64,000 nt of DNA from Clostridiaceae bacterium. GTDB taxonomy: Bacteria > Bacillota > Clostridia > Oscillospirales > QAMX01. The stretch is from NCBI GenBank assembly GCA_034926225.1, contig JAYFRF010000009.1, forward strand, positions 3,134-67,133, written 5' to 3'. The position numbers were made by a program, and so were the translations under genes. Shown here one piece after another: positions 4,573 to 40,326 of this stretch (within the stretch, counting starts at the first letter, position 1; each line of letters starts with the position of its first letter). The notes below the pieces were generated by a model. That model had not been told where the DNA came from. It saw only the letters and a list, made by a program, of their open reading frames with translations, and did not search any database.

Positions 4573-4858
4573 CCTCGACTGATGTTATTTCAAACCGATA
4601 TGCTTCATTTATAATAATCATAGAAGTGGTAACGGCTACGCCTGGAATACGGCGAAAACGGAAAAGGTCGGTGGCTTCTGAGAAAGCAGCCCGGTTAGCC
4701 CATTTCTCGGTTCCATGCCGTCCTTCCCGGTAAGCCCTGACAGATGCGACGATATTGTCAACCTCAGTGCTGAAGCCCTCCGAATCCTTTATAGTTACTA
4801 TCTCTATGATGTCGATGAAGGTATCCATCTTGCCAATACTCATACTCACACTTTCCAC
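4511..4858 (-). CDS. Head-tail adaptor / head closure protein (SPP1 gp16-like)
   Basis: Size, position and an RAYREGRHGTEKWANRAAFSEATDLFRFRRIPG-type sequence. Confidence 0.65.
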   Translation of the reverse strand: MESVSMSIGKMDTFIDIIEIVTIKDSEGFSTEVDNIVASVRAYREGRHGTEKWANRAAFSEATDLFRFRRIPGVAVTTSMIIINEAYRFEITSVEDVKGRGMYSEVLAKEVRPSG

Positions 4859-5169: not shown

Positions 5170-5172
5170 TCT

Positions 5173-21185: not shown

Positions 21186-24053
21186 TTACAGAAACTCTTC
21201 AGCCTCGGTATCGACGTCAATTTTTAGGCATACGACGCGGGTGTTGACGCCTTGAATCCGCTTCTGAGTCTGGTTGTTGTTGCCGCCCTCCGAATTGGAA
21301 AAGCTCTCGATATACTCTCTGTCATGGAATCCCTTGATGCACTTGGTGTAGATGAACCCGGCATCCTCCAAAGCCTCCCGCAGAACCGACGCGATAACGA
21401 ATACATGATGCTTGTCGATTTTTCCGTAACAGGGAGATACAGCCGTATCGAAACGGTTTTTGTTTTCCGCGACCCATCCTTCAACAAAATGCCATGCTCT
21501 ATCCACGGAATCTTCCTTTTCCAGTGACTTGCAGTTGTGCAGAAGCGTCATGCCGAGTTCCAGCGCCTCCGCTATGGCATCCTCGTCGCTCATACTGAAA
21601 AGGCACTCGGAGGAATATTTGTCGGCAAGGGTGATAGCGGCGATGTTGTCCAGATGTGCGCCGGGGTCGCCGAGGTCAAGCATTTCAAAGGACTTTTTCA
21701 GTACACTGCGAATCTTAGTGTAGTCGCCGCTCAATTTGCCTTTGACCGGCATAACCTTTTCAACCAGATACCTTACAAACTTCTCTCCGGCAAAACCGTA
21801 ATTATCTTCGCTTACCTGGTGGACATATCGCCCGTACTCCATGTCCTCAATGGGTTGACCGTAGACCTCCAGAACACGGGTGTTGATGCCGTCCATAGAG
21901 GTTTCGTTTGTGATGGGCTGCTCCCCGGTAGAAATGATGCTGTTGAGCCAGGTTGGTACTTCCTGCAGACCGCCGTTTTTTGAACCTCTGGTCTTGCCGT
22001 AGCCGTTGCCAAGAGAGTACACGATTGTAGAGGAGGACAGCCTCTTTTCGTTCAGCACCTGCAGTTCATCCAGACCAAGCGGCAGATGCTTCAGCGTTCC
22101 GGCTCTGCGTTCCAGTCCGACCGCTGTGGAGTTAAAATTGCCCATGAGTTTCAGCGGATTGCCCCAAACGGAAAGGGAGAACTTCAGCATGGCGGTCTTT
22201 CCGCTCCCGGATGCGTACCAGAAGTGGATGTTGATGATTCTGTTCTGCAGCGGACTCAGCATCGGGGAAACAAAGGAACCCGCCAGCATCGCTCTCGATA
22301 CGGCCGACTTCCGCAGTTCTTTTGCGGTTTCAAGCCACACCGCGAAGTCACCCTTGGCTGTTAGCGCCGGGAGTATCTCCTCGCCGTCGTCACCGTCAAA
22401 CACGATTTCGCCATCCGTGACATAAGGGTAGAACTCTTTCCCTATCCAGCCGATTCTGCTCACGCTGCGGATAAAGGGAATGACGCCGCCGTTCTCGGTT
22501 TCATAATCGGTGAAATACCGCACCATGCCCTCGGAGTTGTCGGAGGACACCAGAAGACCGCTGTCTGCGTATTTTACGAGGGAGGTCTTATTGAACAGAT
22601 TTGATCGGGGAGCGCGTAGGGTCTTCCACTTGCCGTTTCTCATGAAAGCAAGCTCCATCATTTCCAAACCGCTGTCGATATTCTCAAGCCTTGCGGTGAT
22701 AACCACGGGCTGATGGCAGAGGCAGACTTTAGCGGGGACGCCGTTGAAGATGGATGTGGCGGTTACGCCCTCCTCGATGCTGATCTGGTATCCGGCAGGT
22801 TCCACAGCGCCGTTAAGGTCGATGCCGTCAAGGTTGATATCTGCCTGCATACTATCAAACTCCGGCTCGACCGCTTTTTCCGCTGTGAACTTGACGGCGT
22901 GTTCAAAATCGCGTATACCCACACCGGATGTTTTAATGAGCTGCTTGAGCCGGGCGTAGAGGGCGGGTGCTTTTACTTTCGCGTACCCGGCGAGCCGCAG
23001 AGTGCGGTCATCCAGAGCCTCGTCGCCGTCAACCTTCTTTTTTGTCAGCAATATTTCAAGTTGTTCATGGAGAGAAAGCAGCGCATGGACGACCGGTGCC
23101 TTTACACCGCAGCCTCCCGTAGGACAGTCGAAGCAGAGGTTCTCCCGGATATACCGGCAGGTGACCGGGCGCTTTACCTTCTGCGACCGCTGAATCTTCC
23201 TCTCCGTTTCCTCTTCGGAATAACCGTCGTACAAGGCGCTCCACTCATGGAACAGCTCCGCGCCGTCTGGGACGAGGGAGATGTTGTCGCACATGGCTTT
23301 CCATTCTGGCTCGGTCACACCGTTGGGGTCGTTTTTGAGTTTCTGCACAAAAGCGCAACGTTCCATAATCCTGTTCGCGCTGCCCGTTGTTTCCGGATCT
23401 GCCTCAAACGGCTCTTTGTCGAAAGACGTAGGTTTTTCGTAGTATTCGGCAAAGTCCTCAAGGGCATAGCGCGGACCGTCAAAGGAAATGACCGTACAGG
23501 GTATCGGCTCGTCCAACTTGTGGTTTATACTGCCGGGAGCGCGGAACATATGGGAAATATTATACACGTTGTCCAGCTTCCAACCGCGCTTCGCTGCCTC
23601 TCCCATCAGCAACTTTCCGAATCCCCGGAGCAGACCTTTCGCCCGTTCACGGGTGTCGTCATCCGCAAGGGAGACAGGCTCCTTAATAAGGTAATAGCCG
23701 TATATGCCGTAGCCGGAGTCCACGAAGCCCGTGGGTTTTATCTTCATCTCATCGAGGAAGGTCATGGCCGAATCCTTGTCCGGCGGCAGTTCAGTTTCTT
23801 TATGGGCGGGACCGTGAACGTCGATATCCGCCACAAAGGCAATTAGTGTTTCCACATCATCGTCCTCACCACGGAGGTTCGGCGACAGGTCAGCTCTTCG
23901 TGTGTTGGGGTTGATATACACATTCCTGCTTTTACCGAGTTCGACCACGCGGTCATAGACCCCGTCCGCCGGGACGCGGTAGTGCTTTCTGTCTGGCAGA
24001 GTCGTGATTATGACCGCATTGCCAAACAGCTTATAAAATTCGCGCTCGTTCAT
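21186..24053 (-). CDS. Primase-polymerase / SF3-type replicative helicase fusion (DUF927 / P4-D5-like)
   Basis: A 955-aa ORF. The N-terminal prim-pol-like region has IAFVADIDVHGPAHK, and a central Walker A reads YASGSGKTAMLK. It sits next to the DNA polymerase. Confidence 0.75.
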   Translation of the reverse strand: MNEREFYKLFGNAVIITTLPDRKHYRVPADGVYDRVVELGKSRNVYINPNTRRADLSPNLRGEDDDVETLIAFVADIDVHGPAHKETELPPDKDSAMTFLDEMKIKPTGFVDSGYGIYGYYLIKEPVSLADDDTRERAKGLLRGFGKLLMGEAAKRGWKLDNVYNISHMFRAPGSINHKLDEPIPCTVISFDGPRYALEDFAEYYEKPTSFDKEPFEADPETTGSANRIMERCAFVQKLKNDPNGVTEPEWKAMCDNISLVPDGAELFHEWSALYDGYSEEETERKIQRSQKVKRPVTCRYIRENLCFDCPTGGCGVKAPVVHALLSLHEQLEILLTKKKVDGDEALDDRTLRLAGYAKVKAPALYARLKQLIKTSGVGIRDFEHAVKFTAEKAVEPEFDSMQADINLDGIDLNGAVEPAGYQISIEEGVTATSIFNGVPAKVCLCHQPVVITARLENIDSGLEMMELAFMRNGKWKTLRAPRSNLFNKTSLVKYADSGLLVSSDNSEGMVRYFTDYETENGGVIPFIRSVSRIGWIGKEFYPYVTDGEIVFDGDDGEEILPALTAKGDFAVWLETAKELRKSAVSRAMLAGSFVSPMLSPLQNRIINIHFWYASGSGKTAMLKFSLSVWGNPLKLMGNFNSTAVGLERRAGTLKHLPLGLDELQVLNEKRLSSSTIVYSLGNGYGKTRGSKNGGLQEVPTWLNSIISTGEQPITNETSMDGINTRVLEVYGQPIEDMEYGRYVHQVSEDNYGFAGEKFVRYLVEKVMPVKGKLSGDYTKIRSVLKKSFEMLDLGDPGAHLDNIAAITLADKYSSECLFSMSDEDAIAEALELGMTLLHNCKSLEKEDSVDRAWHFVEGWVAENKNRFDTAVSPCYGKIDKHHVFVIASVLREALEDAGFIYTKCIKGFHDREYIESFSNSEGGNNNQTQKRIQGVNTRVVCLKIDVDTEAEEFL

Positions 24054-24390
24054 AATTTTTGCACCTGTCTTCCTCGGTTACGAATTTGATGGTCATATTC
24101 TTTTCACTCGCCCTGTCAAACTCCGCTTCCATACCGGGACTGAGGCGGTCGCCGCATACCCAGACTTCGCTGCATCTGTCCATGAGGGCATTACCAAAGG
24201 ACATACCGAGTTTTCGTTCCGCCAGGTCGGTATCGTCCATAAACTGCGGAAACAAAAGATGAGGCGCAACGGGGATGTATCCCTTATCCACGGCAAGGCG
24301 GCAATATTCTCTCGCCGCCTTTACGTTCGCCGCCACATCCCCGGAGTAGGGACTGCAGATATACACGAGCGGTCGTTTATTGTCCGTCAT
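24031..24390 (-). CDS. DUF4406 / nucleoside 2-deoxyribosyltransferase-like protein
   Basis: PLVYICSPYSGDVAANVKAAREYCRLAVDKGYIPVAPHLLFPQF... matches my recollection of the DUF4406 fold family. Confidence 0.55.
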   Translation of the reverse strand: MTDNKRPLVYICSPYSGDVAANVKAAREYCRLAVDKGYIPVAPHLLFPQFMDDTDLAERKLGMSFGNALMDRCSEVWVCGDRLSPGMEAEFDRASEKNMTIKFVTEEDRCKNYERARIL

Positions 24391-24766
24391 GACGCACCTC
24401 CATTACCTTGTCGAGGAGATCGTCCACAAAGAGCTCGCATTCCTCCGGGATGAGTTCATGGACATCTTCGATATCAAAGCTGTCGAAAAGCTCCCGGAGC
24501 GCCGCACCGTATCCCATATCGGAGAAAGCCTCCACAAGGAGCGCGACCGCGTCGAAGTTGATATTGCTTGTGTGCATCATCCTGTCGGTGCAGTCTGCGC
24601 AATTCACCTCTGTGTCATAGGGGTCTTGCGCTCCGGCGAGAATAAGCTCCCGCAGATCCATCTGAATTTCCTTGCCGCATACGGCGCAGCGGGTATAAGT
24701 GGTCTTTGCCGTAACGGGACCGCACACGACCGCGCCGTCCTTCAGCTTCGTTTTTGTGTAAATCAT
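24377..24766 (-). CDS. Hypothetical protein (CxxC...CxxC zinc-ribbon-like)
   Basis: The start was refined to the ATG at 24766, after GGAGGTA plus 6 nt. It contains the CAVCGKE...CADC pair. Confidence 0.55.
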   Translation of the reverse strand: MIYTKTKLKDGAVVCGPVTAKTTYTRCAVCGKEIQMDLRELILAGAQDPYDTEVNCADCTDRMMHTSNINFDAVALLVEAFSDMGYGAALRELFDSFDIEDVHELIPEECELFVDDLLDKVMEVRHDGQ

Positions 24767-24804
24767 CTTCTCTACCTCCGCAGTATTCGTGATGAACGGA
24801 AAAT

Positions 24805-24848
24805 CCGTCCTCACCTCGTACAGGACAGGCAAGAACGGAAACCGTACC
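24805..24848 (-). repeat. 44-nt conserved intergenic element, copy A
   Basis: ccgtcctc-acctcgtacaggacaggc-aagaacgg-aaaccgtacc. It ends exactly 38 nt before the ATG at 24766. Confidence 0.8.
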
Positions 24849-24852
24849 ATAT

Positions 24853-25362
24853 TTAATCTTTTTTCTGCTGACGTCGATTACGTTGTTGTTCTTGGATTGA
24901 TATCCATCGGCAGTTTTCTGGACAGTAGTTGCCGTCCGGGTTAATTCGATCAATAGTAAGCCCCATTTGATAGCCGGATTTCATGGCCCATTCTCGGAAG
25001 GGCAAATATTCATCCCATTCTTGGCAGATGGATATACCTCTTGCTCCGTAATAGTGAAAATCATGGTTTCTCGGATTACGGCACCGTTGCCGCATTTGAC
25101 TCCACACGGCCCTCAACGACTCGTTGTAATAACCGTGTTTTGTAGCTTTTTTGCGCATATAATCTTGCCTTAGACATCCGCAACTTTTTGTACTTCCGCA
25201 TCTTAAGCTGGCTGCTTGAACTGAAATAATCCGCCCACATTCACACGAACATGAATAGATAACTCTCTTTTTAATGTTTGGGAGTCTGTTGTTTACACTC
25301 AGTCTTCCAAATTTCATCCCAGTGAGATCAATAAAGTTGTTTCCACCGTGCATAACTATCAC
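24853..25362 (-). CDS. Free-standing HNH-like homing-endonuclease-family protein
   Basis: FGRLSV...CSCECG...GSTKSCGC...YGARGISICQEW...IDRINPDGNYCPENCRW. This family is commonly annotated as HNH endonuclease in phages. It is AT-richer than its neighbours and abuts the polymerase stop codon. Confidence 0.65.
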   Translation of the reverse strand: MIVMHGGNNFIDLTGMKFGRLSVNNRLPNIKKRVIYSCSCECGRIISVQAASLRCGSTKSCGCLRQDYMRKKATKHGYYNESLRAVWSQMRQRCRNPRNHDFHYYGARGISICQEWDEYLPFREWAMKSGYQMGLTIDRINPDGNYCPENCRWISIQEQQRNRRQQKKD

Positions 25363-27744
25363 CTAACCTTTCTGATAGAAATCGCATTCATAGCCGTCGG
25401 CGCGGAGGATAAGACCCGGAGCCCAGGGCGGTGTTCTGCCCATCTGTTCGCAGACCGCCTCAAGGGACATGATCCTGTCTGCTTCAATAATGATTTCATC
25501 GTGTACATGGACAACAATGTCACAGTAGCTCAGGGTCTTCATGGCGTGGCAGAGGATATCCCGGCTCGTAGCCTGAACGATATTTTCCACCAGCTTGGGG
25601 CCGTAGGTTACCAGCCGCTCCCACTTCTTCATGCCGCCGATACCCTCATAGGTGATAGCCTCGCCTCCGAAACGGTTCTCACCGATTCTTGGCTTCACAT
25701 AGGCGAGTCTTCTGCCGGACGGTAGTTTTATGAAAAGGAATCCACTCTCGTAGGAAAACTCGACACCGTAAGCGGATGTAGTGGACTTACCCTTGATAGC
25801 CGCTTTCGCCGCCCGGTCGACCGCCCACCAGAACTTGACGATATTGGGGTTAGCACTGCGCCATGAGTCCACGATAGGCTGAAGTTCTGACTCCTTGAGA
25901 CCCATCTCAAGAGCGCCCATGGCCTTGAGTGCGCCTACGGAGCCGCCGTAGCCGCAGTTGTGGACTAACTTGCCCGATACGGTAAAACGATGATGTGGTC
26001 CGACATTTCGTATGTCATAAAGTCGAGCCGTGTGCTTATTAGTTTCCAATTCTTTCGTTTCTCGAAGACTTTTGTTTCCGCATCCTGTATTACCCAACCG
26101 TATCGGGTTCCCACCATATCCGGTTTGTTTGAGATGTGCGCCGCAGGAGGTGGCGAATCCAAATCGTATCGGCTCCGGTTGCCCCTCAATCCAGACAAGG
26201 TGGTCTGGTGTAGCCGTAAGTCCCTCATAAGTAATCACCTCTCGTTCACCTTTATATATGATGCCATCGTGTTTAACCCAGTTTTCTCCATCCCACAGTT
26301 TCATATCTGTGGTAACATTTTCGATTCTTATTAAGCCATGGTTCGTTAATACAAGCTGCCCTTCAGCAATACAGGCTAATTCTGCGATCTTTCCCTTCTG
26401 TCTTAGTTCTCCGTTTACGCCGTGCTTGACCACGGGGACATGAAACATCTGCGAGGCGGTGGCGCAGTAAATATCTTCGCCCTTGGCGAAAGCGTCCGAT
26501 TTCCACTGTTCTTTTGCAAACCATGAGATGACCCTTGCCTCGATTGCCGAGAAGTCCGCCACGATAAACTTCCTGCCGTTCTGCGGCACGAAAGCAGTGC
26601 GGATAAGCTGAGACAGAGTATCCGGGATATCCTCATACAGCATTTCAAGAGCGCCATAATCTTCAGCACCGGCAAGGGCGCGGGCTTCGGCGAGGTCGGG
26701 GATATGGTTCTGAGGCAGATTTTGTAACTGGACCAGCCGCCCGGCGAATCGGCCCGTGCGCGAGGCTCCGAGGAACATGAACATTCCTCGGACACGGTTG
26801 TCGGCGCAGACGGCGTTTTTCATCGCCGTGTATTTCTTTACGGACGATTTCGCAAGCTGCTGGCGGAGCTGCAGCACCGGCACAAGTTCCTCCGGGGCGG
26901 TCTTCAGCCGTGCCGACACTTCTTTCTTGCCGAGGGTGTCTATCTCAAGTCCGTTATCGGCAAGCCAGCCCTTGACCTGCGCCACGCTGTTGGGGTTTTC
27001 CAGAGCGGTCATTTCCCGCATGGCTTCGGTCAGTGCGTCTGTTGACCTTGCATCCAAGGACAGACAGGCGGAAACGAAGGGCATATCTACGCCGATACCT
27101 CTGTCGTTTATTTCTTCGGACAGGTGGTACTCGTCCCACACGAAATCCAGCACGGGGAACTTGGAGAGTTTCTGCGTTATCTGCATCTCGACTTCTACAT
27201 CGCGGAGGTTGTAGGATTTGAAGAGTTCCCACTTTTCCGGGGCGTCGGAGGGCAGGTTTCTCGTCCTGCCGCCGTTTGCCTTTGTCGGTGCACATGGCTG
27301 GCAGAAGAATTTAACGAGTTCCTTGCCCTCGGTCAGCTTTTTCTTTTCAAGACCGAGTATTTCTCCAACATCCGCGAGGGAGAGCGGAAGGCCGAGATAA
27401 GCCGCCCATGTCATGGAGCAGCGCCAGGAGGACGGGTTCAAATAATTCCCAAGAGGATGACCCAGGTGGCGTGAGATACAGATGCGTTCAAACGCGCTGT
27501 TATGGCTCCACTTGAGAACGCCATCATCTTCTATTGCCGCCAGAACGTCGGCGGGTATCTGTTCGCCATGGGCAATATCGACCACTTGAACAGGTTCGTC
27601 ATCAACCGCATAGCTGAACAGAAGAATTCGAAAATCCGGGGACTCGGCATATTTGTAAAGGCCACATTTTTGCAGATCTACGCTGCTGAAAGTCTCAATG
27701 TCACAGGCCAGTTGTTTTATTTTACTCATCTTCTTTTCCTTCAT
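25363..27744 (-). CDS. Family A DNA polymerase with 3'-5' exonuclease domain, interrupted by a mini-intein
   Basis: Exo I is ACDIETFS, motif A is VADFSAIEARV, and motif B is split as RQKGKIAELA / CGYGGSVGAL. Confidence 0.9.
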   Translation of the reverse strand: MKEKKMSKIKQLACDIETFSSVDLQKCGLYKYAESPDFRILLFSYAVDDEPVQVVDIAHGEQIPADVLAAIEDDGVLKWSHNSAFERICISRHLGHPLGNYLNPSSWRCSMTWAAYLGLPLSLADVGEILGLEKKKLTEGKELVKFFCQPCAPTKANGGRTRNLPSDAPEKWELFKSYNLRDVEVEMQITQKLSKFPVLDFVWDEYHLSEEINDRGIGVDMPFVSACLSLDARSTDALTEAMREMTALENPNSVAQVKGWLADNGLEIDTLGKKEVSARLKTAPEELVPVLQLRQQLAKSSVKKYTAMKNAVCADNRVRGMFMFLGASRTGRFAGRLVQLQNLPQNHIPDLAEARALAGAEDYGALEMLYEDIPDTLSQLIRTAFVPQNGRKFIVADFSAIEARVISWFAKEQWKSDAFAKGEDIYCATASQMFHVPVVKHGVNGELRQKGKIAELACIAEGQLVLTNHGLIRIENVTTDMKLWDGENWVKHDGIIYKGEREVITYEGLTATPDHLVWIEGQPEPIRFGFATSCGAHLKQTGYGGNPIRLGNTGCGNKSLRETKELETNKHTARLYDIRNVGPHHRFTVSGKLVHNCGYGGSVGALKAMGALEMGLKESELQPIVDSWRSANPNIVKFWWAVDRAAKAAIKGKSTTSAYGVEFSYESGFLFIKLPSGRRLAYVKPRIGENRFGGEAITYEGIGGMKKWERLVTYGPKLVENIVQATSRDILCHAMKTLSYCDIVVHVHDEIIIEADRIMSLEAVCEQMGRTPPWAPGLILRADGYECDFYQKG
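25957..26373 (-). mobile_element. Mini-intein (139 aa, class 1: Cys1 ... His-Asn / Cys+1) in DNA polymerase motif B
   Basis: It covers residues 458-596. It starts CIAEGQLVLTNHG, has block B TATPDHLVW, and ends RFTVSGKLVHN, followed by CGYGG. No endonuclease domain is present, and the segment is locally AT-rich. Confidence 0.85.
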
Positions 27745-27844
27745 TAGAAAAGCGGCGGAGAAAGACCGTCTCCCTCCGCCGCCCGTTTTGATTACTGCTT
27801 TTCTTCGGCTATTGACTCAATATGCGTCATAGTGCTGCTCTCCC

Positions 27845-28417
27845 TTAACCCAGGAAGTCGTCGTCGGCATCGGACTTGTAGCCGTCGTTGAAATCGTCTT
27901 CTGCCTTGGCTTTACCTCCGAGGGATTCGCCGTCCTTGATTTTCTGGATGTTCTGAAGACCGCAGGCAACGCCTTTATTTCCATTAGAATTAAAAGCATA
28001 GAAACTGAGAGACACACGGGCATACACGCCGGAGTAAATTTCCGAGGTATCGAAGATGGGCTGACAGTGGACATCCACGACGCCGGGAGCATTAGTGCTG
28101 TTGGCGTTCACGAACCAGCAACCCTTGTACGCTTCATCGGCCGGGCGCTCGACATCTCCGTCGCGGAGGGGCGTTTTCAGAGTTGAGAGCGGAGGTACGG
28201 TTTTGCCGCTGCCGCGCAGTTTGCCCTGACCTTCCTCGTAGGCCGCCTGAATAGCGGCCTTAATTTTGGTCACGGTGACAGTGTCGGACTTAGGGATAAG
28301 TACGGAAGTGGAGAACTTCGGCGCTCCGCCGTTCACACTTTTGGCTTGCCATACGTTGGCATAGGAAAGACGGGCCAGGCCGGTTACAACTTTTGTGGGG
28401 TTAACAGAATTTGTCAT
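27845..28417 (-). CDS. DUF2815-family phage ssDNA-binding-like protein
   Basis: GLARLSYANVWQAKSVNGGAPKFSTSVLIPKSD... with an acidic C-terminal tail DADDDFLG. The start was refined to the ATG at 28417, after AAGGAG. Confidence 0.7.
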   Translation of the reverse strand: MTNSVNPTKVVTGLARLSYANVWQAKSVNGGAPKFSTSVLIPKSDTVTVTKIKAAIQAAYEEGQGKLRGSGKTVPPLSTLKTPLRDGDVERPADEAYKGCWFVNANSTNAPGVVDVHCQPIFDTSEIYSGVYARVSLSFYAFNSNGNKGVACGLQNIQKIKDGESLGGKAKAEDDFNDGYKSDADDDFLG

Positions 28418-28430
28418 GATAATAATCTCC

Positions 28431-29534
28431 TTAATTTTCATTTGGGTCGGCGAAGTCATCCGCCGCCGTGTTTAGTTCGTTACGCTTGTCCGATGCCGGA
28501 ACAAGCACGGGTTTGCCTTCGGGCTTGCAGGTCAGCCCGCCGAGGAGCTCATCAAACTTCTTCCTGCCGAGAAGCGAAGTCATAGCCGTTATGCCGAGCA
28601 GCTTGTGTTCATAGGGGTCGTACCCCGCGTCCTTGACCGCGGCTGCAGCGGCATCATCATCTGTGTACTTGCGGTTGCTTCTGCCGGCCACAACCTTCCA
28701 GCCGTCATACTTCGTGCCGGAAAGTGCCTGGGCAAGAGCGTAGTCCTTGACGTCCGACGCCCAGGAAACCAGTTCGTCGATTTTACCGAGGATGTCCGCA
28801 ACCTCGCAGATTTGCAGTAGAGCGGGGTCTGTGAAGTCATAGGCGGCAAGCGCCATATTTGCTTCGGCTCTGGCTCTGCATTCCGCTTTCGCCTTGCAGA
28901 ACCGGCAGTGGTCGCCAGCCTTATAGCTGCCTTTGCCGTCCCATGCGAGTTTCGCTGCCGGGACAAGCACGGTTTCCGCCCATTCGGTGAGAGCCTCTGC
29001 GGTCGTCTCCCAGGTCTGCACATTGCCGAGCCTTGGCTGATAGATACTCATCCGCACGGTATCGAACCGATAGAGGAAGTCGAACATCCGCATGGCACCG
29101 AGGGCGTAGATGCGAAGCTGGTCATTTTCTTCCGCATCGACCTTTACGCCGCGTCCGCTTTTCAGATCGATGATGTGCAGGACGCCGTCTGACACGATAA
29201 GTGCGTCGCAGGTGCCAAAGCACTCCGGGACATAGCGGGAGCAGTCCACGCGCTGCTCAACAAATACAGCCGGGTTTTTGAGTCCTTCCGACTGCTCCAT
29301 TACGAAGTCGGTGTAATCGGATGTGTACTCATCCATCTCCGCGTCATCGCAAGTAGGAGCGTTTTCGGCTCGTCCGAGTCGGTGGTTGAGTTTCTCCTCC
29401 GCCATGCTGTGGGCAATGGTGCCTTCCGCCGCGTAGCTTGACACGGTGTCTGCGAGGAACTCCGTGAGCCGTGCCGACGGTGGACACGCAATCCACCTGT
29501 GGCTTGCCGAGGGAGAGAGGAGTGCGTGGCTCAT
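28431..29534 (-). CDS. DUF2800-family PD-(D/E)XK nuclease (Cas4/RecB-like)
   Basis: The N-terminus LLSPSASHRWIACPPSARL and the C-terminal Cys cluster CRFCKAKAEC are typical of DUF2800. Confidence 0.75.
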   Translation of the reverse strand: MSHALLSPSASHRWIACPPSARLTEFLADTVSSYAAEGTIAHSMAEEKLNHRLGRAENAPTCDDAEMDEYTSDYTDFVMEQSEGLKNPAVFVEQRVDCSRYVPECFGTCDALIVSDGVLHIIDLKSGRGVKVDAEENDQLRIYALGAMRMFDFLYRFDTVRMSIYQPRLGNVQTWETTAEALTEWAETVLVPAAKLAWDGKGSYKAGDHCRFCKAKAECRARAEANMALAAYDFTDPALLQICEVADILGKIDELVSWASDVKDYALAQALSGTKYDGWKVVAGRSNRKYTDDDAAAAAVKDAGYDPYEHKLLGITAMTSLLGRKKFDELLGGLTCKPEGKPVLVPASDKRNELNTAADDFADPNEN

Positions 29535-29857
29535 AACAGCGCCCTCGCTTCCTCCATGAGCTCTTCATAGAACTCACTTTCAACCTCGGACAGCTTTTCA
29601 CAGCCGCGGCTTTCAAGCAGCTTCTTTACCTCCGCCGTTTTTCCGCCGCGGGATACCTCCGCCAGCAGAGCGCGGACTTCGGCAAGCTCCGGGGCCGTCT
29701 TCTGAGGTGCTTTGGGAGAGGGACTGCCAACCTCGTATGCCTTGAGCGCCGTACTCAGCTTAGTCACGCTGCCAGCCAGCGAGGTGAGTTCTGCGATTAC
29801 ACGCGCCAGGGTTTCCGCGATGTTGACCAGTTCGTTCCCGATTTCGGTGATTGTCAT
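29531..29857 (-). CDS. Hypothetical coiled-coil protein
   Basis: A 108-aa ORF with RBS GGAGGTA plus 6 nt. Confidence 0.5.
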   Translation of the reverse strand: MTITEIGNELVNIAETLARVIAELTSLAGSVTKLSTALKAYEVGSPSPKAPQKTAPELAEVRALLAEVSRGGKTAEVKKLLESRGCEKLSEVESEFYEELMEEARALL

Positions 29858-31047: not shown

Positions 31048-33381
31048 ATGAAATACACGGATTATTTCTCAAATTTCTATATGGGCAGAAGCTCCGGTGG
31101 CATCCTTGGGCACAAGTCCAAAGAAAAGATTCCAGAATACTTTTTCAATGCCGCGTTACCTGAAGATCACTATGAACTTTTGCCAACTTCGAACAGCACA
31201 TACGGAAAATGGTTTGATGGGACACGAAAACCAGAAGGCGTTATTTGGGGAACAGTTGTTTCGCATTTTGACGAAGATGGTTTTATTGACGAGACCTCGA
31301 AAAAGCTGAATGACAGTGTGTTAAGGGACATCATGCATCGCTTTGGCATTGAATTACAAACAGGAGAAAATCCTGATAAACACCTCTTTGCGTTTTCGCT
31401 GGCTAAACTGTTTTATGCAATCGCTCAAGGAAATGGAGAGACCACAGACGAAGCAAAGAATTATTACAAGCCAGAAGCACATATCATTTCTTTTCATCAG
31501 TACGTTGCACGGACAATAGCTAAATACGAGAAAATAAAAACGCCCTTCTCGGAAGGAGAAGAGCGTTTGATAGACGATATATATGTTTGCAATAAATTGA
31601 GTAGCCGGCTCTCAGCTACAAGGAACCGGCACCGCGGAACTCAAGAAAAAATTATTCTTAATGCGACTCTCGACTTGATTGAAGAATATTCAAAGAAAGT
31701 CATCCTTGTTGCAAATGGCGGAATGGGAAAAACGATGCTGCTTCAGCATCTGCTTCTTGAATCAGTCCGTAAGCACACACAAACGGGTCTGCTTCCAATC
31801 ATAATCGAACTCCGCGACTTTAGCGAGGGCAATGATCTGTTGAATGATTACATAATAAAGACAGCAAGTGTTTATGATGAAAACTTGACCAGCAAAAAAG
31901 TCGAAGAGTTGATGATATCAGGCAAATGCCAAATTCTTATGGATGGCGCTGATGAGATTGATCCTTCCGATGAAAAAGCATTTCAGCGGAAAATAGCTGA
32001 ACTTATCGATAGATACCCATACAATCAGTATGTCTTGGCCTCTAGGGAATGTGGGTTATTAAAAGGCATCACTGGTTTCTCACGGATGTATCTTCACCCC
32101 TTCAGCAGGGAGCAGTCAACTACACTAATTGATAACCTCTTAAAGGGTTGTGACGACGAAGCCATTATCGAAAGTATAAAAAATTACACGGAGGGCGATT
32201 TTCTCCAAAGGCACAAGGTGTTTGCTTCAAATCCCATGCTACTGACCTTTGTTATTATGAAGTATCCTATTGTGGAATCCTTTGATGGAAAAAAGAGACT
32301 ATTTTATAGAGCTGTATATGATGCAATCGTATATGGACACGATGAGGAAAAGGAAGGTTATTCTAGAGTATTTAGAAGTGCTCAAAATGCTGATGAATTT
32401 ACAAAGGTATTTGCCGAACTATGTGCCACCACATATATGAAGCACGAAGCAGAGTTTGATCTTGACACATTTGATGAGTACTTTAACAACCTGGCCACGA
32501 AGAATAGTATTGAAAACCCCAAAGCCATGACCAGTAAAAGCTTTATACACGATGCCTGTGCAACAGCGTGCATGATGTACGAGCAAGAGACGAAGCTCTT
32601 ATATATCGACCCAGGTTTTCAGGAGTATTTGTTTGCCAAGTACTATTTTTCAGCAGCACCCGAGGAATTGATTGCCCTTGGACAAAGCCTTTGGGATATT
32701 GCAGAAACAGAGTTTGAAGGACTCGACGCTTTTGAAATGTTAAATGAGTTTTCCCCTGAGAAATATGAACGGTATTTTCTCAAGCCGTTTTTGGAGAATG
32801 TTTTTCAGGGAAAGGATGAAGCCAAATATTTCATAACATTTTTGCGATATGGGTACCGAGATCTGGAATATCAAATGATTGATCTTGATTGTGTCGCAGC
32901 GTATGCAACGAAAGAAAAGTCCGAATGGGCTTCACCAAAGCCCGCCGTTACGGAACCATCTAGCCTCGTTTTTTCGATGTTACTACGAAAGCTGGGCACT
33001 CCCTGTCTATTGTGCTTGACCATTTTCGAGAAAGCACTTGATTATTCCGAGTTTATGACTGCCGGGATATATGGGGAACTTTATTTCGACCCGGCTGACA
33101 GTAAAAATAAAATTGTCCCTCGCAGATTGTTGCATCAAGAAACTCAAGATTTACAAGCTTACGAGAGAACACACGCAGTCGAAAACCATGTCCGTGATGA
33201 TGCAAAGCAGCTTGTATGTTTTGGACGCGAATATAAGGTTGATTTTAATAAGGTTCTGGAAACACCTGAGAACTACACCGATTTAATCAATGTTCTGAAA
33301 ACGCCAGAAGAAGATGTGTGGAAAACCTTTTGCAAGGTAAAAGAATACTATGAGGGTTTGGTAACAAGATATGGCACTTAA
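31048..33381 (+). CDS. NACHT-type STAND NTPase (NLR-like), flanking domains unassigned
   Basis: Walker A is VILVANGGMGKTMLL (nt 31717-31734) and Walker B is QILMDGADEID (31933-31956). These are followed by YVLASRE, LHPFSREQ and ASNPMLLTFV, which match the NACHT motif order. Confidence 0.8.
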   Translation: MKYTDYFSNFYMGRSSGGILGHKSKEKIPEYFFNAALPEDHYELLPTSNSTYGKWFDGTRKPEGVIWGTVVSHFDEDGFIDETSKKLNDSVLRDIMHRFGIELQTGENPDKHLFAFSLAKLFYAIAQGNGETTDEAKNYYKPEAHIISFHQYVARTIAKYEKIKTPFSEGEERLIDDIYVCNKLSSRLSATRNRHRGTQEKIILNATLDLIEEYSKKVILVANGGMGKTMLLQHLLLESVRKHTQTGLLPIIIELRDFSEGNDLLNDYIIKTASVYDENLTSKKVEELMISGKCQILMDGADEIDPSDEKAFQRKIAELIDRYPYNQYVLASRECGLLKGITGFSRMYLHPFSREQSTTLIDNLLKGCDDEAIIESIKNYTEGDFLQRHKVFASNPMLLTFVIMKYPIVESFDGKKRLFYRAVYDAIVYGHDEEKEGYSRVFRSAQNADEFTKVFAELCATTYMKHEAEFDLDTFDEYFNNLATKNSIENPKAMTSKSFIHDACATACMMYEQETKLLYIDPGFQEYLFAKYYFSAAPEELIALGQSLWDIAETEFEGLDAFEMLNEFSPEKYERYFLKPFLENVFQGKDEAKYFITFLRYGYRDLEYQMIDLDCVAAYATKEKSEWASPKPAVTEPSSLVFSMLLRKLGTPCLLCLTIFEKALDYSEFMTAGIYGELYFDPADSKNKIVPRRLLHQETQDLQAYERTHAVENHVRDDAKQLVCFGREYKVDFNKVLETPENYTDLINVLKTPEEDVWKTFCKVKEYYEGLVTRYGT

Positions 33382-33401
33382 TTCATTGGAAGGGAGTTTT
33401 A

Positions 33402-33641
33402 TTGGACATGAAAGATAGTAAAGTAAATGCTGTAGAACATTGGCTTAGCCTCGAGGAAATTTCAAAGCACGTTGGCTGCAGCAAGGACACCATCCGGTCC
33501 TGGGTCAAAAAGGATACCATTCCCTTCCATAAAGTTGGAAGGCTGTACAAATTTAGAGTATCCGAAGTGGACGCTTGGATTGAAAGCGGCGCAAGCGCAG
33601 ATGCAGATAAAAACAATTCGGAGGTAAAAGACAATGGCTGA
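33402..33641 (+). CDS. Excisionase/MerR-type helix-turn-helix DNA-binding protein
   Basis: WLSLEEISKHVGCSKDTIRSWVKKDTIPFHKVGRLYKFRVSEVDAWI. Its 3' end overlaps the hsdM start by 8 nt (ATGGCTGA). Confidence 0.8.
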   Translation: MDMKDSKVNAVEHWLSLEEISKHVGCSKDTIRSWVKKDTIPFHKVGRLYKFRVSEVDAWIESGASADADKNNSEVKDNG

Positions 33642-35226
33642 CATGAAAAAAGAGCAGGAGCGGGATGAGCTCCACCGTGCCATTTGGGCGATTGCCGACG
33701 AGCTGCGTGGTGCCGTAGACGGTTGGGATTTTAAGAACTATGTGCTTGGAACGATGTTCTACCGCTATATTTCCGAAAATTTGACCGCGTACATCAACGA
33801 CGGCGAGATTGAAGCCGGAAATACCAGTTTTGACTATGCCAAACTGAAAGATGCGGAAGCGGAGGAAGCCCGCGTCGGCCTAGTGCAGGAAAAGGGATTC
33901 TTCATTCTGCCCAGTGAGCTTTTTTGCAACGTGAGAGCCAGAGCCGCCAGCGGAGAAGGTTGGACTTACCCCAACGGCAAAGAAAAGCTGCTCAATGAAA
34001 AGCTGGAGGAAGTGTTTAGCCACATCGAGGAATCCGCCCAAGGCAGTGCTTCTGAAAACAGTTTTGCAGGGCTATTCGATGACTTTGATGTAAACAGTAA
34101 CAAGCTGGGCAGTACCGTCGCAAAGAGAAATGAGCGTCTTGCAAAGCTGCTGGATGGCGTTGCCGCCATGAATCTCGGTTCTATCAAAGACCATGACATC
34201 GATGCTTTTGGCGATGCCTATGAATTTTTAATGACTATGTACGCCTCCAATGCAGGCAAATCGGGCGGCGAGTTTTTCACCCCAGCAGATGTGTCCGAAC
34301 TGTTGACCCGTCTTGGTACGGTGGGCAAGAAAACCATCAACAAGGTTTATGACCCCGCCTGCGGTTCCGGCTCTCTGCTTTTAAAAGCCGAAAAAATTCT
34401 GGGCAAAGATTCAGTTACTACCGGGTTCTATGGTCAGGAAATCAATATCACCACCTACAACCTTTGCCGCATAAATATGTTTCTGCACGATATTGGCTTT
34501 GATAAGTTTGATGTGGAGTGCGAGGATACACTGATTAACCCGCAGCACTGGGACGATGAGCCCTTTGAACTGATCGTATCCAATCCGCCCTACTCCATCA
34601 AATGGGTGGGCGATGAAAACCCCTTGCTCATTAACGACCCTCGGTTTTCTCCCGCTGGTATCCTTGCACCAAAGAGCAAAGCCGACCTTGCCTTTATCAT
34701 GCACAGCCTTTCTTGGCTTGCAAGCAACGGAACGGCTGCCCTAGTCTGCTTCCCGGGCATTATGTACCGTGGCGGCGCAGAACAGAAAATCCGTAAATAC
34801 TTAATCGACAACAACTTTGTGGACTGCATTATTCAGTTGCCAAGTAACCTGTTTTTTGGCACCTCCATTGCCACCTGCATCATGGTGATGAAGAAGAACA
34901 AGAGCGACAACAAAACCCTGTTTATTGACGCATCCAACGAGTGTATTAAGGTCACCAATAACAACAAGCTGACCCCGGTAAATATCGACCGCATTGTGGA
35001 CACCTTTGCAAAGCGGGAGGAAGTGGCGAACTTCTCCCACCTTGCCGGTTATGATGAAGTAGCAGAAAACAACTATAACCTCTCGGTTTCCACCTATGTG
35101 GAGGAGGAGGACACCCGGGAAGAGATTGATATTGCCAAGCTGAATGCTGAGATTGAAGAAATCGTCATGCGCGAGGACGAACTGCGAGAAGCTATTCGGA
35201 ATATTATTGAAGAAATCGAGGCGTAA
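33634..35226 (+). CDS. hsdM: Type I restriction-modification system, methyltransferase subunit
   Basis: The N-terminal HsdM_N-like region has LWAIADELRG. Motif I is VYDPACGSGSLL and motif IV is VSNPPYSIKW. Confidence 0.95.
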   Translation: MADMKKEQERDELHRAIWAIADELRGAVDGWDFKNYVLGTMFYRYISENLTAYINDGEIEAGNTSFDYAKLKDAEAEEARVGLVQEKGFFILPSELFCNVRARAASGEGWTYPNGKEKLLNEKLEEVFSHIEESAQGSASENSFAGLFDDFDVNSNKLGSTVAKRNERLAKLLDGVAAMNLGSIKDHDIDAFGDAYEFLMTMYASNAGKSGGEFFTPADVSELLTRLGTVGKKTINKVYDPACGSGSLLLKAEKILGKDSVTTGFYGQEINITTYNLCRINMFLHDIGFDKFDVECEDTLINPQHWDDEPFELIVSNPPYSIKWVGDENPLLINDPRFSPAGILAPKSKADLAFIMHSLSWLASNGTAALVCFPGIMYRGGAEQKIRKYLIDNNFVDCIIQLPSNLFFGTSIATCIMVMKKNKSDNKTLFIDASNECIKVTNNNKLTPVNIDRIVDTFAKREEVANFSHLAGYDEVAENNYNLSVSTYVEEEDTREEIDIAKLNAEIEEIVMREDELREAIRNIIEEIEA

Positions 35227-36440
35227 TGATGAGCAAATTAAATGAATTGATTGCTAAATTATGCCCATATGGGGTGGAATATCGAGAACTCGGGGCATTC
35301 GCCCAAAATGAGAAGAAAAAGAATATAGGAGAACATTGTAAGTTGGCCTACAGCATTACACAAGCGGGATTGATTCCCACTTCCGAATACTTCAAAGGTG
35401 CAAAAGTTACAAGTGATGATACTTCCGGATATAGAATTGTAAAAAGAAATTGGTTTGTATATTCTCCTTCTCGAATTGATGTTGGTTCAATTAATTATCT
35501 TAGAGATAAAGATGAAGTGATCGTGAGTCCGCTCAATGTTGTTTTTAGTGTTAATGAAACGGAGATCCGTCCAGATTATCTCTTATACTTTCTGAACTCA
35601 CGGAGCGGAACATGGCAAATAATAACGAGTCGAGAGGGAATCGAGGGTACAGGACGAAAACTGCTACCGTTTGATAAGTTTAAGAAAATAATAGTTCCCG
35701 TTCCCCCTCTGCCCGTGCAGGCTGAGCTTGTCCGTATTCTGGACAATTTTACGGAACTTACAGCGGAGCTTACAGCGGAACTTACAGCGAGAAAAAAGCA
35801 GTATGAATATTATAGAGATAGTCTGTTGAAATGTGACAGCAGCGCTGAATGGAAATCAATGGGAGAAATCGGAAATTTTATAAGGGGTAGAAGATTTGTT
35901 CATGCAGATGATAGGCAAAATGGTATTCCTTGTATTCATTATGGCGAATTGTATACCCATTATGGCATTTCGGCAACGAATGTAAAAACTTATATAAATC
36001 CAGAGTTAAAAACCAACTTCCGATATGCAAAAAAGAATGATGTTGTTATTGTTGCGGCTGGAGAAAATAAGGTTGATATTGGGGTTGGAGTTGCTTGGCT
36101 GGGCAATTATGATGTTGCGATACACGACGCTTGCTTTATTTTCTGCCATAATCAAAATCCTAAATATATATCATATTTCTTGCGAACGGAAATGTTTCAC
36201 CAGCAAATTATTAAATTTGTGTCAGAAGGTAAAATATGTTCTATATCTGCCAATGGACTTGCAAAAGCAAAAATCCCGTTGCCACCCCTTGCCGAACAAC
36301 AGCGCATCGTCACCATCCTCGACCATTTCGATACCCTTTGCAACGATATTTCAACCGGTCTCCCCGCTGAAATCGCCGCACGACAAAAGCAATATGAATA
36401 CTATCGGGACAAGCTGCTGTCATTCCAAGAATTGACCTGA
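35226..36440 (+). CDS. hsdS: Type I restriction-modification system, specificity subunit
   Basis: Two target-recognition halves are each followed by a conserved helix (ELTARKKQYEYYRDSLL and AEIAARQKQYEYYRDKLL). The start overlaps the hsdM stop (TAATG). Confidence 0.9.
   Translation: MMSKLNELIAKLCPYGVEYRELGAFAQNEKKKNIGEHCKLAYSITQAGLIPTSEYFKGAKVTSDDTSGYRIVKRNWFVYSPSRIDVGSINYLRDKDEVIVSPLNVVFSVNETEIRPDYLLYFLNSRSGTWQIITSREGIEGTGRKLLPFDKFKKIIVPVPPLPVQAELVRILDNFTELTAELTAELTARKKQYEYYRDSLLKCDSSAEWKSMGEIGNFIRGRRFVHADDRQNGIPCIHYGELYTHYGISATNVKTYINPELKTNFRYAKKNDVVIVAAGENKVDIGVGVAWLGNYDVAIHDACFIFCHNQNPKYISYFLRTEMFHQQIIKFVSEGKICSISANGLAKAKIPLPPLAEQQRIVTILDHFDTLCNDISTGLPAEIAARQKQYEYYRDKLLSFQELT
35751..35789 (+). 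repeat. Tandem 12-bp repeats encoding (T)ELTAELTAELTA in the central conserved region of HsdS
   Basis: ACGGAACTT ACAGCGGAGCTT ACAGCGGAACTT ACAGCG. Confidence 0.9.
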
Positions 36441-36453
36441 GGAGGTGTAGAAA

Positions 36454-39400
36454 GTGCCATTTTTCAATATTGTTGCCGAAACCAATAAAAACACCGTTGT
36501 TACCGAATATGAGCCGGTCAGAACCCGATCCGATAGCTACCAGAGCGAGTCGGCCTTGGAACAGGAGTTTATTCGTCTGCTGTGTGAGCAAGGCTATGAT
36601 TATCTGCCCATCCACACCGAGGCCGACCTGATTGCCAACCTTCGCACAAAGCTGGAAGAACTCAACGATTACACCTTTACTGATACGGAATGGGAACGCT
36701 TCTTTTCCGACTGCATTGCCAACAAAAACGACGGCATTGTGGAAAAGACCCGCAAAATCCAAGAGGATTATGTGCAGGTGCTAAAGCGTGATGATGCCAT
36801 GACTAAAAACATCACGCTTATCGATAAAAAGAACATCCACAACAACCGCTTGCAGGTCATCAATCAGTACGTGCTTGGCAAAGAGGACGGCGCAACATAT
36901 GACAACCGCTATGATGAGACAGTGCTTGTAAATGGCCTGCCTCTTGTACATATCGAACTGAAACGCCGGGGCGTTGCCATTCGGGAGGCGTTCAACCAAA
37001 TTAACCGTTATCAGCGCGACAGCTTTTGGGCGGGCTGTGGCCTGTTTGAATATGTGCAGATTTTTGTCATCTCCAACGGCACGAACACCAAGTATTATTC
37101 CAACAGCACCCGATTTAATGCCATCAAAGATGCGTCATCCGGCAAAACCAAAAAGGGCAAAACAAGCAACAGCTTTGAGTTTACCTCGTTCTGGGCGGAC
37201 GCCAACAACAAGACGATTCCCGACCTGATTGACTTTACGAAGACCTTCTTTGCCCGGCACGCAATTTTAAATATTTTGACGAAGTACTGTGTTTTCACTT
37301 CTGAGAATATGCTGATGGTCATGCGTCCCTATCAGATTACCGCAACCGAGCGCATCCTCAACCGCATTGAGATTGCGCACAACTACAGAAAATACGGTGA
37401 CATTGCCGCCGGCGGTTATATCTGGCACACCACCGGTTCCGGTAAAACCTTGACTTCCTTCAAGACTGCACGGATTGCCTCGCAGTTGCCGTACATAAAT
37501 AAAGTCCTGTTTGTGGTAGACCGCAAAGACCTCGACTATCAGACCATGAAGGAATACGACCGCTTTGAAAAAGGTGCTGCCAACAGCAACACCTCAACTG
37601 CAATTTTGCAAAAACAGCTTGCTGGAACAAAAGAGCGTATCATCATCACCACAATTCAGAAGCTGTCGACCTTTATCAAGAAAAACAAGGAGCACTCGGT
37701 ATATAACAAAAACGTAGTTATTATCTTTGACGAGTGCCACCGTAGCCAGTTCGGAGATATGCACACGGCAATCGTGCAGAACTTCAAAAAGTATTATATG
37801 TTTGGCTTTACCGGAACTCCAATTTTCTCGGTTAACGCAGGCCGCGCGAAAAATGCGCAGTTCTTCACCACAGAGCAGACCTTCGGCGATCAGCTCCACG
37901 CCTACACCATTGTAGATGCCATCAACGATAGAAACGTGCTGCCCTTCCGTGTGGACTATATCAAAACAATGGATACTGACCGGGATATCGACGACGAGCA
38001 GGTTTGGGACATCGACCGTGAAAAGGCGTTCATGGCTCCGCAGCGCATTTCATTGGTCGCCAAATACATCCTGGATCACTTCGATCAGAAAACCTATCGT
38101 GGCGATAAGTCGTACATCTTTAGTCAGATGACAAATATTTCAGATGTAGCCTCGGCGAAAAGAGGAGCAGTTGAGGAAATTAAACAAAAACAGCGTATCA
38201 GCGGTTTCAACTCTATTTTTGCGGTGGCGTCTGTGGACATAGCAAAGCTGTATTATGATGAATTCCGCAAGAAGATGCGGGAAGACCCCATCAAGCAACT
38301 AAAAATCGCTGTAATCTACAGCTATGCCCCGAATGAGGAAGAAACTGACGGCATCCTTGATGAGGAAAATCCGGAGGATACTTCCGCACTGGACAAGACC
38401 TCCCGCGATTTTCTGGAGAGTGCAATAGACGATTATAACGGGATGTTCCACACCACCTATGACACCTCTTCCGACAAGTTTCAGAACTACTACAAGGATG
38501 TATCTCTGCGGATGAAGAACAAGGAACTGGACCTTTTAATTGTGGTCAACATGTTCCTCACCGGCTTTGACGCTACTACGCTCAACACTCTGTGGGTAGA
38601 TAAAAACCTCAAGATGCACGGCTTGATTCAGGCATTCAGCCGCACCAATCGAATTCTCAATTCGATTAAGACTTTCGGTAATATTGTTTGCTTCCGCAAT
38701 TTGCAAAAGAGAGTGGATGCAGCAATCTCGCTGTTCGGAGATAAAAATGCCGGCGGTATTGTTTTGCTGCAGAGCTTCAAAGATTATTATTACGGATACG
38801 AATCTGTGGATGGCACCCCGAAGCCGGGTTACATTGATATGATCGAGGACTTGTCAAACAAGTTCCCTCTGTCAGAGCCACAGATTATTGGCGAAAAGAA
38901 TCAGAAGGACTTTATTTCACTGTTTGGCGCTATCCTGCGTATTCGTAATCTTTTGGTCTCCTTTGATGAATTTAAGGGGAAAGAAATGATTACCGAGCGC
39001 GATCTGCAGGATTATCTGGGCAGATACCAGGACCTGCGCGATGAATGGAAGCGCAAACGTGAAAATGGTGAAAGCACTGATATTATTGATGATATTGTAT
39101 TCGAGATTGAACTGATCAAGCAAATCGAAATCAATATTGACTATATTCTTATGCTGGTGAAGAAGTACCACGATACGCATTGTGAGGACAAAGAGGTGCT
39201 TGTCACCATCAAAAAGGCAATCGACGCCAGCCCTGAACTGCGCAGCAAAAAGCAGCTGATTGAAACCTTTATTGCCGGGGTCAATGATGTGGATGATGTC
39301 ATGAGCGAATGGCATGGTTTCGTTGCCCAGCAGCGCGAGCAGGATCTTTCTGCACTGATTCAAGACGAAAAGTTGAAGCCGGCAGAAACTCGTATTTTCT

Positions 39401-40239: not shown

Positions 40240-40326
40240 TGGTGCCGGTGGCGGGGGTCGAACCCGCACGGTGTCGCCACCGCGGGATTTTGAGTCCCGT
40301 ACGTCTGCCAATTCCATCACACCGGC
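40240..40326 (-). tRNA. tRNA-Leu (anticodon CAA), class II with long variable arm, CCA encoded
   Basis: GCCGGTG...ACGGGA-CTCAAAA-TCCCG-CGGTGGCGACACCGTG-CGGGTTCGACCCCCG-CCACCGGC-A-CCA folds as a cloverleaf, with CAA at positions 34-36. Confidence 0.9.

Follow-up and report, generated by a model that had tools for sequence, protein, structure and literature searches.

Why should a DNA polymerase gene carry both a splicing element that lacks an endonuclease and, directly at its 3' end, a free-standing gene of an endonuclease family, and does either depend on the other to spread? The question is raised by a prophage locus of a Clostridiaceae bacterium (GCA_034926225.1, contig JAYFRF010000009.1), in a stretch of 64,000 nucleotides (nt) that we call the window. 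Here, a family-A DNA polymerase gene is split in its motif B by a mini-intein and is followed without a gap by a gene of an HNH-like phage family. We consider it quite probable that two independent selfish elements colonised this polymerase gene: a decayed mini-intein and, at the 3' end, a free-standing endonuclease gene. The features at issue are the following.

25363-27744, minus strand: family-A DNA polymerase gene in the replication module of a Heliusvirales-like prophage; precursor of 793 amino acids (aa), which splicing would reduce to ∼654 aa
25957-26373, minus strand: mini-intein, class 1 by its motifs, of 139 aa (polymerase residues 458-596), in the O-helix (motif B) between ...KIAELA and CGYGG
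25965-26228, minus strand: putative relic of a nested homing-endonuclease gene, 87 codons in the +1 frame, from frame translations and DNA alignment with the related loci L015, L042 and L003
24853-25353, minus strand: intact free-standing gene of an HNH-like, putative homing endonuclease, 166 aa from the ATG at 25353 (169 aa from an alternative GTG at 25362)
24865-25374, minus strand: inserted segment carrying the free-standing gene, from blastn and a junction alignment against the related contig L185; its boundaries are ambiguous by a few bases

Two insertions in one polymerase gene

The IMG/VR contig L185 shares ∼88.7% DNA identity with the window over positions 21359-29612 and lacks exactly two blocks, the 417-nt intein (25957-26373) and ∼510 nt (∼24865-25374) carrying the open reading frame (ORF) behind the polymerase. 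The same two blocks are absent from L184. Because L185 is without exactly these two segments, both elements are insertions, and the first-pass annotation of this DNA, made from the letters alone, was right to call the insert and its neighbour mobile-element insertions. GC content is 54.2% in the exteins, 45.6% in the intein insert and 42.5% in the neighbouring ORF.

Across the intein, the polymerase reads ...RQKGKIAELA / CIAEGQ...TATPDH...KLVHN / CGYGGSVGAL. The flank spacing R-x3-K-x3-L-x3-Y matches that of the Klenow O-helix residues which we take to be R754, K758, F762 and Y766 (our own alignment to the established numbering), and the insert therefore splits motif B. An endonuclease-less mini-intein of 139 residues had been proposed at this position; we read the same boundaries, and an in-frame endonuclease domain is absent from the insert. 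Its splicing residues are Cys1, TxxH (T55-P-D-H58), the block F YDIxN, H138-N139 and the +1 Cys; none of them varies among 21 mini-inteins with 51–75% identity to that of the window. Intein-less polymerase homologues exist, and alignment with them, proposed earlier as a check, gave a precise in-frame difference: L185, ∼88% identical, lacks exactly this segment and, like L184, reads ...AELA/CGYGG. Another pair, L179 with an intein and L180 without, differs by exactly 780 nt at ...AELA / C...HN / CGY.

By the motifs of the Hint class and by this precise presence and absence, we classify the 139-aa insert as a class-1 mini-intein. As it sits inside an essential motif and its catalytic residues are conserved, the polymerase is presumably still made by protein splicing. 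Several results weigh against this classification. Pfam and NCBIfam models gave no match to the intein even at an E value of ≤10, so the case for an intein is carried by the other evidence. The AlphaFold2 (AF2) model has a predicted local distance difference test score (pLDDT) of 62.8 and is poor in its C-terminal third. Foldseek with this low-confidence model returned inteins or intein-like domains in 20 of 21 matches (best E 0.018), and a mini-intein profile searched against PDB sequences returned inteins or intein-like (BIL) domains in 5 of 5 (E 0.09–0.4), none of these matches being individually significant. The missing curated match and the weak model would suit an insertion that is tolerated in the polymerase and does not splice. 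However, the insert interrupts the O-helix between the residues that we align with Klenow F762 and Y766, the splicing residues are unchanged in all 21 diverged copies, indels with C...HN/C boundaries are precise in several pairs and even the weak PDB matches are all inteins, which makes a tolerated, non-splicing insertion scarcely credible.

Where the polymerase gene ends, L185, with the empty site, reads ...TTCTAT AAAAAAGATTAA (YKKD-stop), and the window reads ...TTCTAT CAGAAAGGTTAG GTGATAGTTATG...(ORF)...CAGCAG AAAAAAGATTAA. By this junction alignment, the endonuclease element entered within the last codons of the polymerase gene. The inserted element provides a surrogate polymerase terminus (QKG-stop) and a ribosome-binding site, and the original terminus (KKD-stop) now ends the endonuclease ORF. 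A second pair shows the same design: L180, with the gene, is 96.6% identical upstream to the empty site of L424, and divergence starts abruptly 27 nt before the polymerase stop. The AT-rich ORF that had been noted at 24853-25362, with its first codon directly after the polymerase TAG, is real, although its start probably lies further in. A GTG at 25362 does follow the TAG directly, but the ATG at 25353 is the likelier start; a Shine-Dalgarno sequence, AGGTGA (25359-25364), lies 5 nt upstream of this ATG and overlaps the TAG, and gene callers chose the ATG in two independent assemblies with an identical 166-aa protein.

The earlier assignment of this ORF to a phage family annotated as HNH endonucleases also held up, since the protein matches PHROG 374, 'HNH endonuclease', at 1.8e-60, and the only PHROG families that match it are labelled HNH. 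The family is very large, with 4773 database clusters at E ≤ 1e-5 and 1114 phage records, and carries this label without the canonical catalytic histidine. In its AF2 model (pLDDT 92.8), the 166-aa protein has a zinc-ribbon sheet of three strands, helices and, at the C-terminus, a beta-beta-alpha unit. I-HmuI, of the HNH_3 type (PDB 1U3E), was the sole solved relative found with the family profile (E 0.011); it is likewise phage-borne, such enzymes being free-standing or embedded in an element, and a possibly shared beta-beta-alpha core with ...D-x-I-D-x-x-G-N...N-x-R-W-x-T... can be aligned. In contrast to I-HmuI, the protein has an N-terminal CxCxC...SCGC zinc ribbon.

What the family lacks weighs against its name. 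D135-R136 aligns with the D-H of I-HmuI. An Arg thus occupies the position that the catalytic His has in the D-H motif, at the end of strand 1, of HNH / His-Me finger enzymes, and this R136 is the same in all 119 aligned members. Pfam and NCBIfam, HNH models included, gave no match to the 166-aa protein even at E ≤ 10, and Foldseek of its model against the PDB found nothing significant. With a remote match only and the canonical catalytic His missing, the 'HNH' label of the family is weak, and nuclease activity would follow from genomic behaviour only. The same three observations could be explained if the protein were no nuclease but a DNA-binding derivative of the HNH fold with a regulatory or other role, its place behind the polymerase being ordinary variation in gene order. 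We consider this improbable. The family with D-R also provides the nested gene of a mobile intein (see below), where it is under purifying selection. Moreover, the free-standing gene is present or absent at a fixed site and brings a surrogate polymerase terminus, is more conserved than the flanking polymerase and lies in a tract of 658 identical nt between diverged genomes.

The free-standing gene is intact and retains all family-invariant residues. Its ratio of nonsynonymous to synonymous substitution rates (dN/dS) is 0.09 against a homologue of 83% identity, indicating purifying selection, and the polymerase tail beside that homologue is only 56–61% identical. The closest relatives (P0025, P0026, P0031, P0033, P0034, P0039, P0046 and L344; 56–100% identity) all lie 0–16 nt after a family-A polymerase gene. 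A search of genome and metagenome contigs returned mostly relatives of ≤50% identity, with L344 as the only one of 160 loci to abut a polymerase 3' end; it is also the only one among the 79 + 160 more distant relatives. The gene is thus present or absent at a fixed site, shares this site in diverged hosts and is incongruent with the host gene, and we judge from these data that it behaves as a functional and mobile homing endonuclease gene. Further genes of the family, 35–36% identical, occur elsewhere in replication modules, at 8777-9244 in L170 (3.7 kb downstream of the polymerase gene), and at 5792-6253 in L036 and 6234-6695 in L037 (∼0.7 kb downstream); L036 and L037 also have a full-size intein.

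Out-of-frame endonuclease genes in full-size inteins

A search of IMG/VR for the polymerase insert gave 104 relatives, about half of them 120–168 aa long and the rest 257–313 aa. With the free-standing 166-aa protein as query, tblastn matched the middle of the long inteins at 24–37% identity, and every match in these full-size inteins was shifted by 1 (mod 3) relative to the intein frame. When translated, this middle part gives junk rich in K, R, Q and E in frame 0 and a clean member of the HNH-like family in frame +1, with the zinc-ribbon cysteines, YGxRGI and IDRIDxxGNYxPxNLRF. The +1 ORF of L015 matches PHROG 374 (3.5e-21), and a search of its frame-0 linker against PHROG found no match. 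We rejected an HNH-like domain in frame with the full-size inteins: every match lies in the +1 frame, and what the intein frame encodes there is junk.

Among 39 unique full-size inteins, not one has a stop in frame 0; the +1 frame contains 29 in 9590 codons, compared with one per 25.6 codons in the flanking exteins. Codon-phase variability in 25 unique inteins of 927 nt was distributed as follows.

nt 1-180: most variable at third positions of the intein frame
nt 181-900: most variable at third positions of the +1 frame
last 27 nt: most variable at third positions of the intein frame

This pattern indicates that selection in the nested region follows the +1 frame, and the stop counts show that both frames are kept open. 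A conserved GAGGTRAT-N6-ATG heads the +1 ORF and falls within the region coding for block B. On the strength of the +1-frame family match, the open frames and the +1-frame selection, we regard the full-size relatives as composite elements, each a mini-intein with a homing-endonuclease gene outside the intein frame, presumably translated separately, in its loop region. This dual-coding sequence of ∼750 nt has been missed by annotation pipelines.

Cultivable examples exist. One is the cultured Gardnerella phage vB_Gva_AB1 (MW387018; our locus L003), in which the 'DNA polymerase' ORF9 of 967 aa contains a 309-aa intein (4384-5310 of the locus) whose endonuclease ORF, in the +1 frame, is not annotated. 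Polymerases of ∼957 aa in Streptococcus Javan prophages probably include such an intein as well. The same intein occurs at the same motif-B position in very divergent family-A polymerases (≤26–34% identical) of L077 (2696-4942), L081 (2738-5581) and L083 (2561-5500), with the nested +1 gene in the latter two, and the composite element therefore appears to have crossed a wide diversity of polymerases. The polymerase gene of relatives has taken up further insertions, in L007/L011/L012 (∼2713-3629), L020/L057 (∼1806-2009 and ∼1979-2179), L040 (4736-5641) and L320 (6858-7503). They include a block of ∼900 nt after N-extein residue ∼333, a second intein-like block near residue ∼346 and a second intein in the C-extein (residue ∼127-131), again with an HNH-like ORF, which is in the +1 frame in L040. 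In P0002 and P0004, the S/CIAEG...LVHN/C intein family is found in non-polymerase proteins of ∼200 aa, with an N-terminal part of ∼55 aa and a tail of ∼12 aa, which is either a different extein context or an intein-like domain.

An intact out-of-frame nested gene is found in the 39 unique full-size inteins, whereas the window holds a relic only. What this relic retains is the GAGGTGA-N6-ATG start, nine codons from the beginning of the endonuclease core (MVGTRYGWV, from 26117) and some 41 codons at the end of the gene. Its translation reads MRDLRL...SPPPAAHISNKPDMVGTRYGWV / IQDAETKVFEKRKNWKLISTRLDFMTYEMSDHIIVLPYRAS, the first part corresponding to the start of the nested gene and the last part to its C-terminal end. 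The deletion junction at 26090/26091 removes ∼170 codons, including the whole catalytic core, and the relic has no match in PHROG. By this comparison, the mini-intein of the window is a deletion derivative of a full-size intein. The mini-inteins of L005 and L014 have other deletion endpoints, and thirteen length classes exist. These different junctions indicate that the endonuclease gene has been deleted repeatedly, as would be expected in the decay phase of the homing cycle.

An out-of-frame endonuclease architecture in inteins was reportedly proposed by Gorbalenya as early as 1998. Such genes have been described in recent preprints of 2025–2026, and the inteins considered here form no new category. 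Gosselin, Arsenault and Gogarten (bioRxiv 10.1101/2025.01.02.630785) reported Endo VII-like out-of-frame and antisense endonucleases in actinophage inteins, and Phillips, DeSimone and Gogarten (bioRxiv 10.64898/2026.09.14.751524) a LAGLIDADG ORF in the +2 frame of a cyanobacterial dnaX intein. As in the relatives of the window, the endonuclease ORF there lies between the splicing blocks in another frame and the intein frame is an unstructured linker; selection on the endonuclease frame, related free-standing phage genes and mini-intein derivatives are also shared. In contrast to these Endo VII-like and LAGLIDADG enzymes, those of the present inteins are HNH-like with a zinc ribbon and Arg for the catalytic His. 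The host gene differs as well, being motif B of family-A polymerases in gut Firmicutes phages (Heliusvirales and relatives), and the window itself has a deleted relic instead of the intact composite. The paper on Heliusvirales makes no mention of inteins or homing endonucleases.

The main interest of the locus thus lies partly outside the window, in a widespread motif-B intein of gut-phage family-A polymerases with an out-of-frame endonuclease. This intein adds a new endonuclease family, and a very abundant group of human-gut phages, to the known range of the out-of-frame architecture. One gene here offers a natural series: the empty site, the intein with its out-of-frame endonuclease, several independent mini-inteins made by deletion and free-standing cousins at the 3' end. 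The series is relevant to the idea that free-standing endonuclease genes, by invading mini-inteins, gave rise to bifunctional inteins, and also to the decay half of the homing cycle.

Probable separate spread of intein and free-standing gene

If the mini-intein and the gene behind the polymerase were partners, they should be found together. The first-pass annotation had likened the arrangement to the collaborative homing of some phage group I introns. In cyanophage S-PM2, F-CphI cuts at the insertion site of the psbA intron (Zeng et al. 2009; PMC6083498). There too, a gene with an endonuclease-less splicing element is followed immediately by that of a free-standing endonuclease. Applied to the window, the mini-intein would be both a protective disruption of the cleavage site and cargo. 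Where its status could be scored, the polymerase adjacent to the free-standing gene was as follows; the contigs of P0026 were too short for scoring.

P0031, P0033, P0039, L344, and P0046 in L180: polymerase without intein
P0034, and P0046 in L178/L179: polymerase with a full-size intein
the window: polymerase with a mini-intein

Five of the seven gene-bearing lineages of known status thus include intein-less polymerases. Conversely, among loci with at least 600 nt of downstream sequence, an abutting gene was found at none of 32 mini-intein loci and none of 41 full-size-intein loci. Two samples of 80 polymerase loci each, picked by polymerase similarity alone, had no abutting gene and one intein each. 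The survey of related phages for joint presence that had been suggested therefore came out against a pair. One count speaks for it: three of the seven gene-bearing lineages have an intein compared with two of 158 sampled polymerases. This could reflect a real linkage; the figures come from different databases and are not phylogenetically controlled, and we place no weight on them.

The free-standing gene and the nested intein genes belong to a common HNH-like family, but to different clades. In a neighbour-joining tree, all nested genes form one long-branched clade, far from the free-standing clade at polymerase 3' ends. The possibility that the free-standing gene is a recently excised nested copy was rejected, as the two are only 24–37% identical and the nested genes form a clade of their own.

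One endonuclease protein occurs in identical form in L179, which has the intein, and in L180, which has none. These two loci share a tract of 658 nt without a mismatch (4881-5538), comprising the last 117 nt of the polymerase gene, the endonuclease gene and ∼30 nt beyond, against a background diverged by 3–4%. The nearest mismatch lies 496 nt from the intein site, and the tract resembles the trace of a recent homing or conversion event that ended before the intein. L179 and L180 differ at seven clustered synonymous positions, no more than 20 bp to either side of the intein site (around 3605/4386). This clustering means that intein-less alleles living with the gene could be resistant variants, and for this reason we did not use the pair as proof that the enzyme cannot cut the intein-less site. 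Gene-bearing alleles are remodelled at the last 12–27 nt of the polymerase gene and not at motif B. This indirect evidence suggests that the home site of the free-standing gene is the last codons of the polymerase gene, 0.6 kb from the intein, unlike in the psbA case, and the gene also co-resides with intein-less alleles.

Together, these data suggest that the two elements spread independently, and they do not support a collaborative-homing pair. What stood of the earlier comparison is that both are mobile elements with a family link, the nested genes being of the same family; the partnership was not supported. Independent assortment in related phages had been named in advance as the outcome that would speak against the idea, and it is what we observe, which bears on collaborative homing in the strict sense. 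In favour of such homing are the splicing element without endonuclease 0.6 kb from a free-standing endonuclease gene, the superfamily shared with the intein's own nested endonuclease, the possible resistance of gene-associated intein-less alleles and the three intein-bearing lineages out of seven. Nonetheless, the gene kept beside intein-less polymerases in five lineages, its absence from all 32 mini-intein loci, the distant nested clade, the remodelling at the polymerase end and a conversion tract that stops short of the intein make collaborative homing very unlikely here.

A looser dependence would be trans homing by hitch-hiking, in which the free-standing enzyme cuts near the polymerase 3' end, repair tracts regularly reach at least 0.6 kb and the defunct mini-intein is maintained and spread materially by its neighbour. 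There is a precedent in T4, where MobE mobilises the defunct I-TevIII/nrdB intron by trans homing (Wilson & Edgell 2009, PMC2790892). There as in the window, with its relic, a self-splicing element with a decayed internal endonuclease gene adjoins an intact free-standing HNH-type gene, and the site of the free-standing enzyme is probably not the insertion site of the element. The T4 element is a group I intron, whereas ours is an intein. In contrast to T4, the two elements considered here usually occur apart, and the intein was not reached by the one natural conversion tract. Co-conversion in phages typically covers such a distance, and the possible excess of inteins among gene-bearing lineages would also fit. 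However, the sole measurable natural tract reaches 117–496 nt into the polymerase gene and 612 nt would be needed; mini-inteins persist at 32 loci without such a gene; and, compared with L185, the C-extein that separates the two elements (87.2% identity) has diverged at least as much as the flanks (88.6–88.7%), giving no sign of joint import. We therefore regard material hitch-hiking as unlikely, though less so than collaborative homing. In its boldest version, the window would show an intein in trans homing for the first time: a defunct mini-intein kept circulating by co-conversion that a neighbouring endonuclease drives, the enzyme belonging to an Arg-for-His family that is real, mechanistically non-canonical and present in gut-phage family-A polymerases both free-standing and nested out of frame. 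This claim is a tentative one, and we doubt it.

For two independent elements, the following course of events would account for the locus. An ancestral intein of 257–313 aa would have had a separately translated endonuclease gene in the +1 frame, with the polymerase frame reading through it as a junk linker. An in-frame deletion of ∼510 nt would then have removed the endonuclease core and left a mini-intein that is presumably splicing-competent but immobile, with relic gene ends. The free-standing gene, HNH-like with the invariant Arg for His but from another clade, would have inserted into the last codons of the polymerase gene. Its enzyme would cut endonuclease-less alleles near the polymerase 3' end, the gene being copied in by break repair, and the surrogate terminus brought by the gene might also immunise its own allele. 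The two elements would share a target gene without an obligate partnership, and at most the mini-intein, 0.6 kb away, would sometimes be carried along by co-conversion.

Replication module and flanking genes

From ∼1 to 30.6 kb, the minus strand of the window encodes phage replication and structural functions. Its replication module has the order PD-(D/E)XK/DUF2800 exonuclease, Enc34-type single-stranded-DNA-binding protein, family-A DNA polymerase, small ORF of unknown function, DUF7768 protein and DUF927 primase-helicase. The polymerase ORF matches Pfam DNA_pol_A (3.5e-20) and PHROG 17 (7e-139). The nearest annotated relatives are Candidatus Heliusvirales gut phages and prophages of Streptococcus and Gardnerella, and a megablast search of the region against phage records found no match. 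Downstream of the inserted segment lies one further gene.

24377-24766, minus strand: gene of unknown function, 129 aa, PHROG 21057; in the empty-site relative L185 it directly follows the polymerase gene

The ORF at 24377-24850 (minus strand, 157 aa) is probably this 129-aa gene starting at 24766. The start at 24766 is used by the gene calls in L164, the match to PHROG 21057 begins at residue 29 of the 157-aa ORF, and L185, with its empty site, has no ATG at the upstream start position.

Directly beyond the phage replication module, the plus strand carries a NACHT/STAND ATPase and a complete type I restriction-modification system (hsdM, hsdS and hsdR) at 31048-39585, followed on the minus strand by a tRNA-Leu(CAA) gene at 40240-40326. 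The ATPase and the restriction-modification genes form a defence cluster at or near the prophage boundary.

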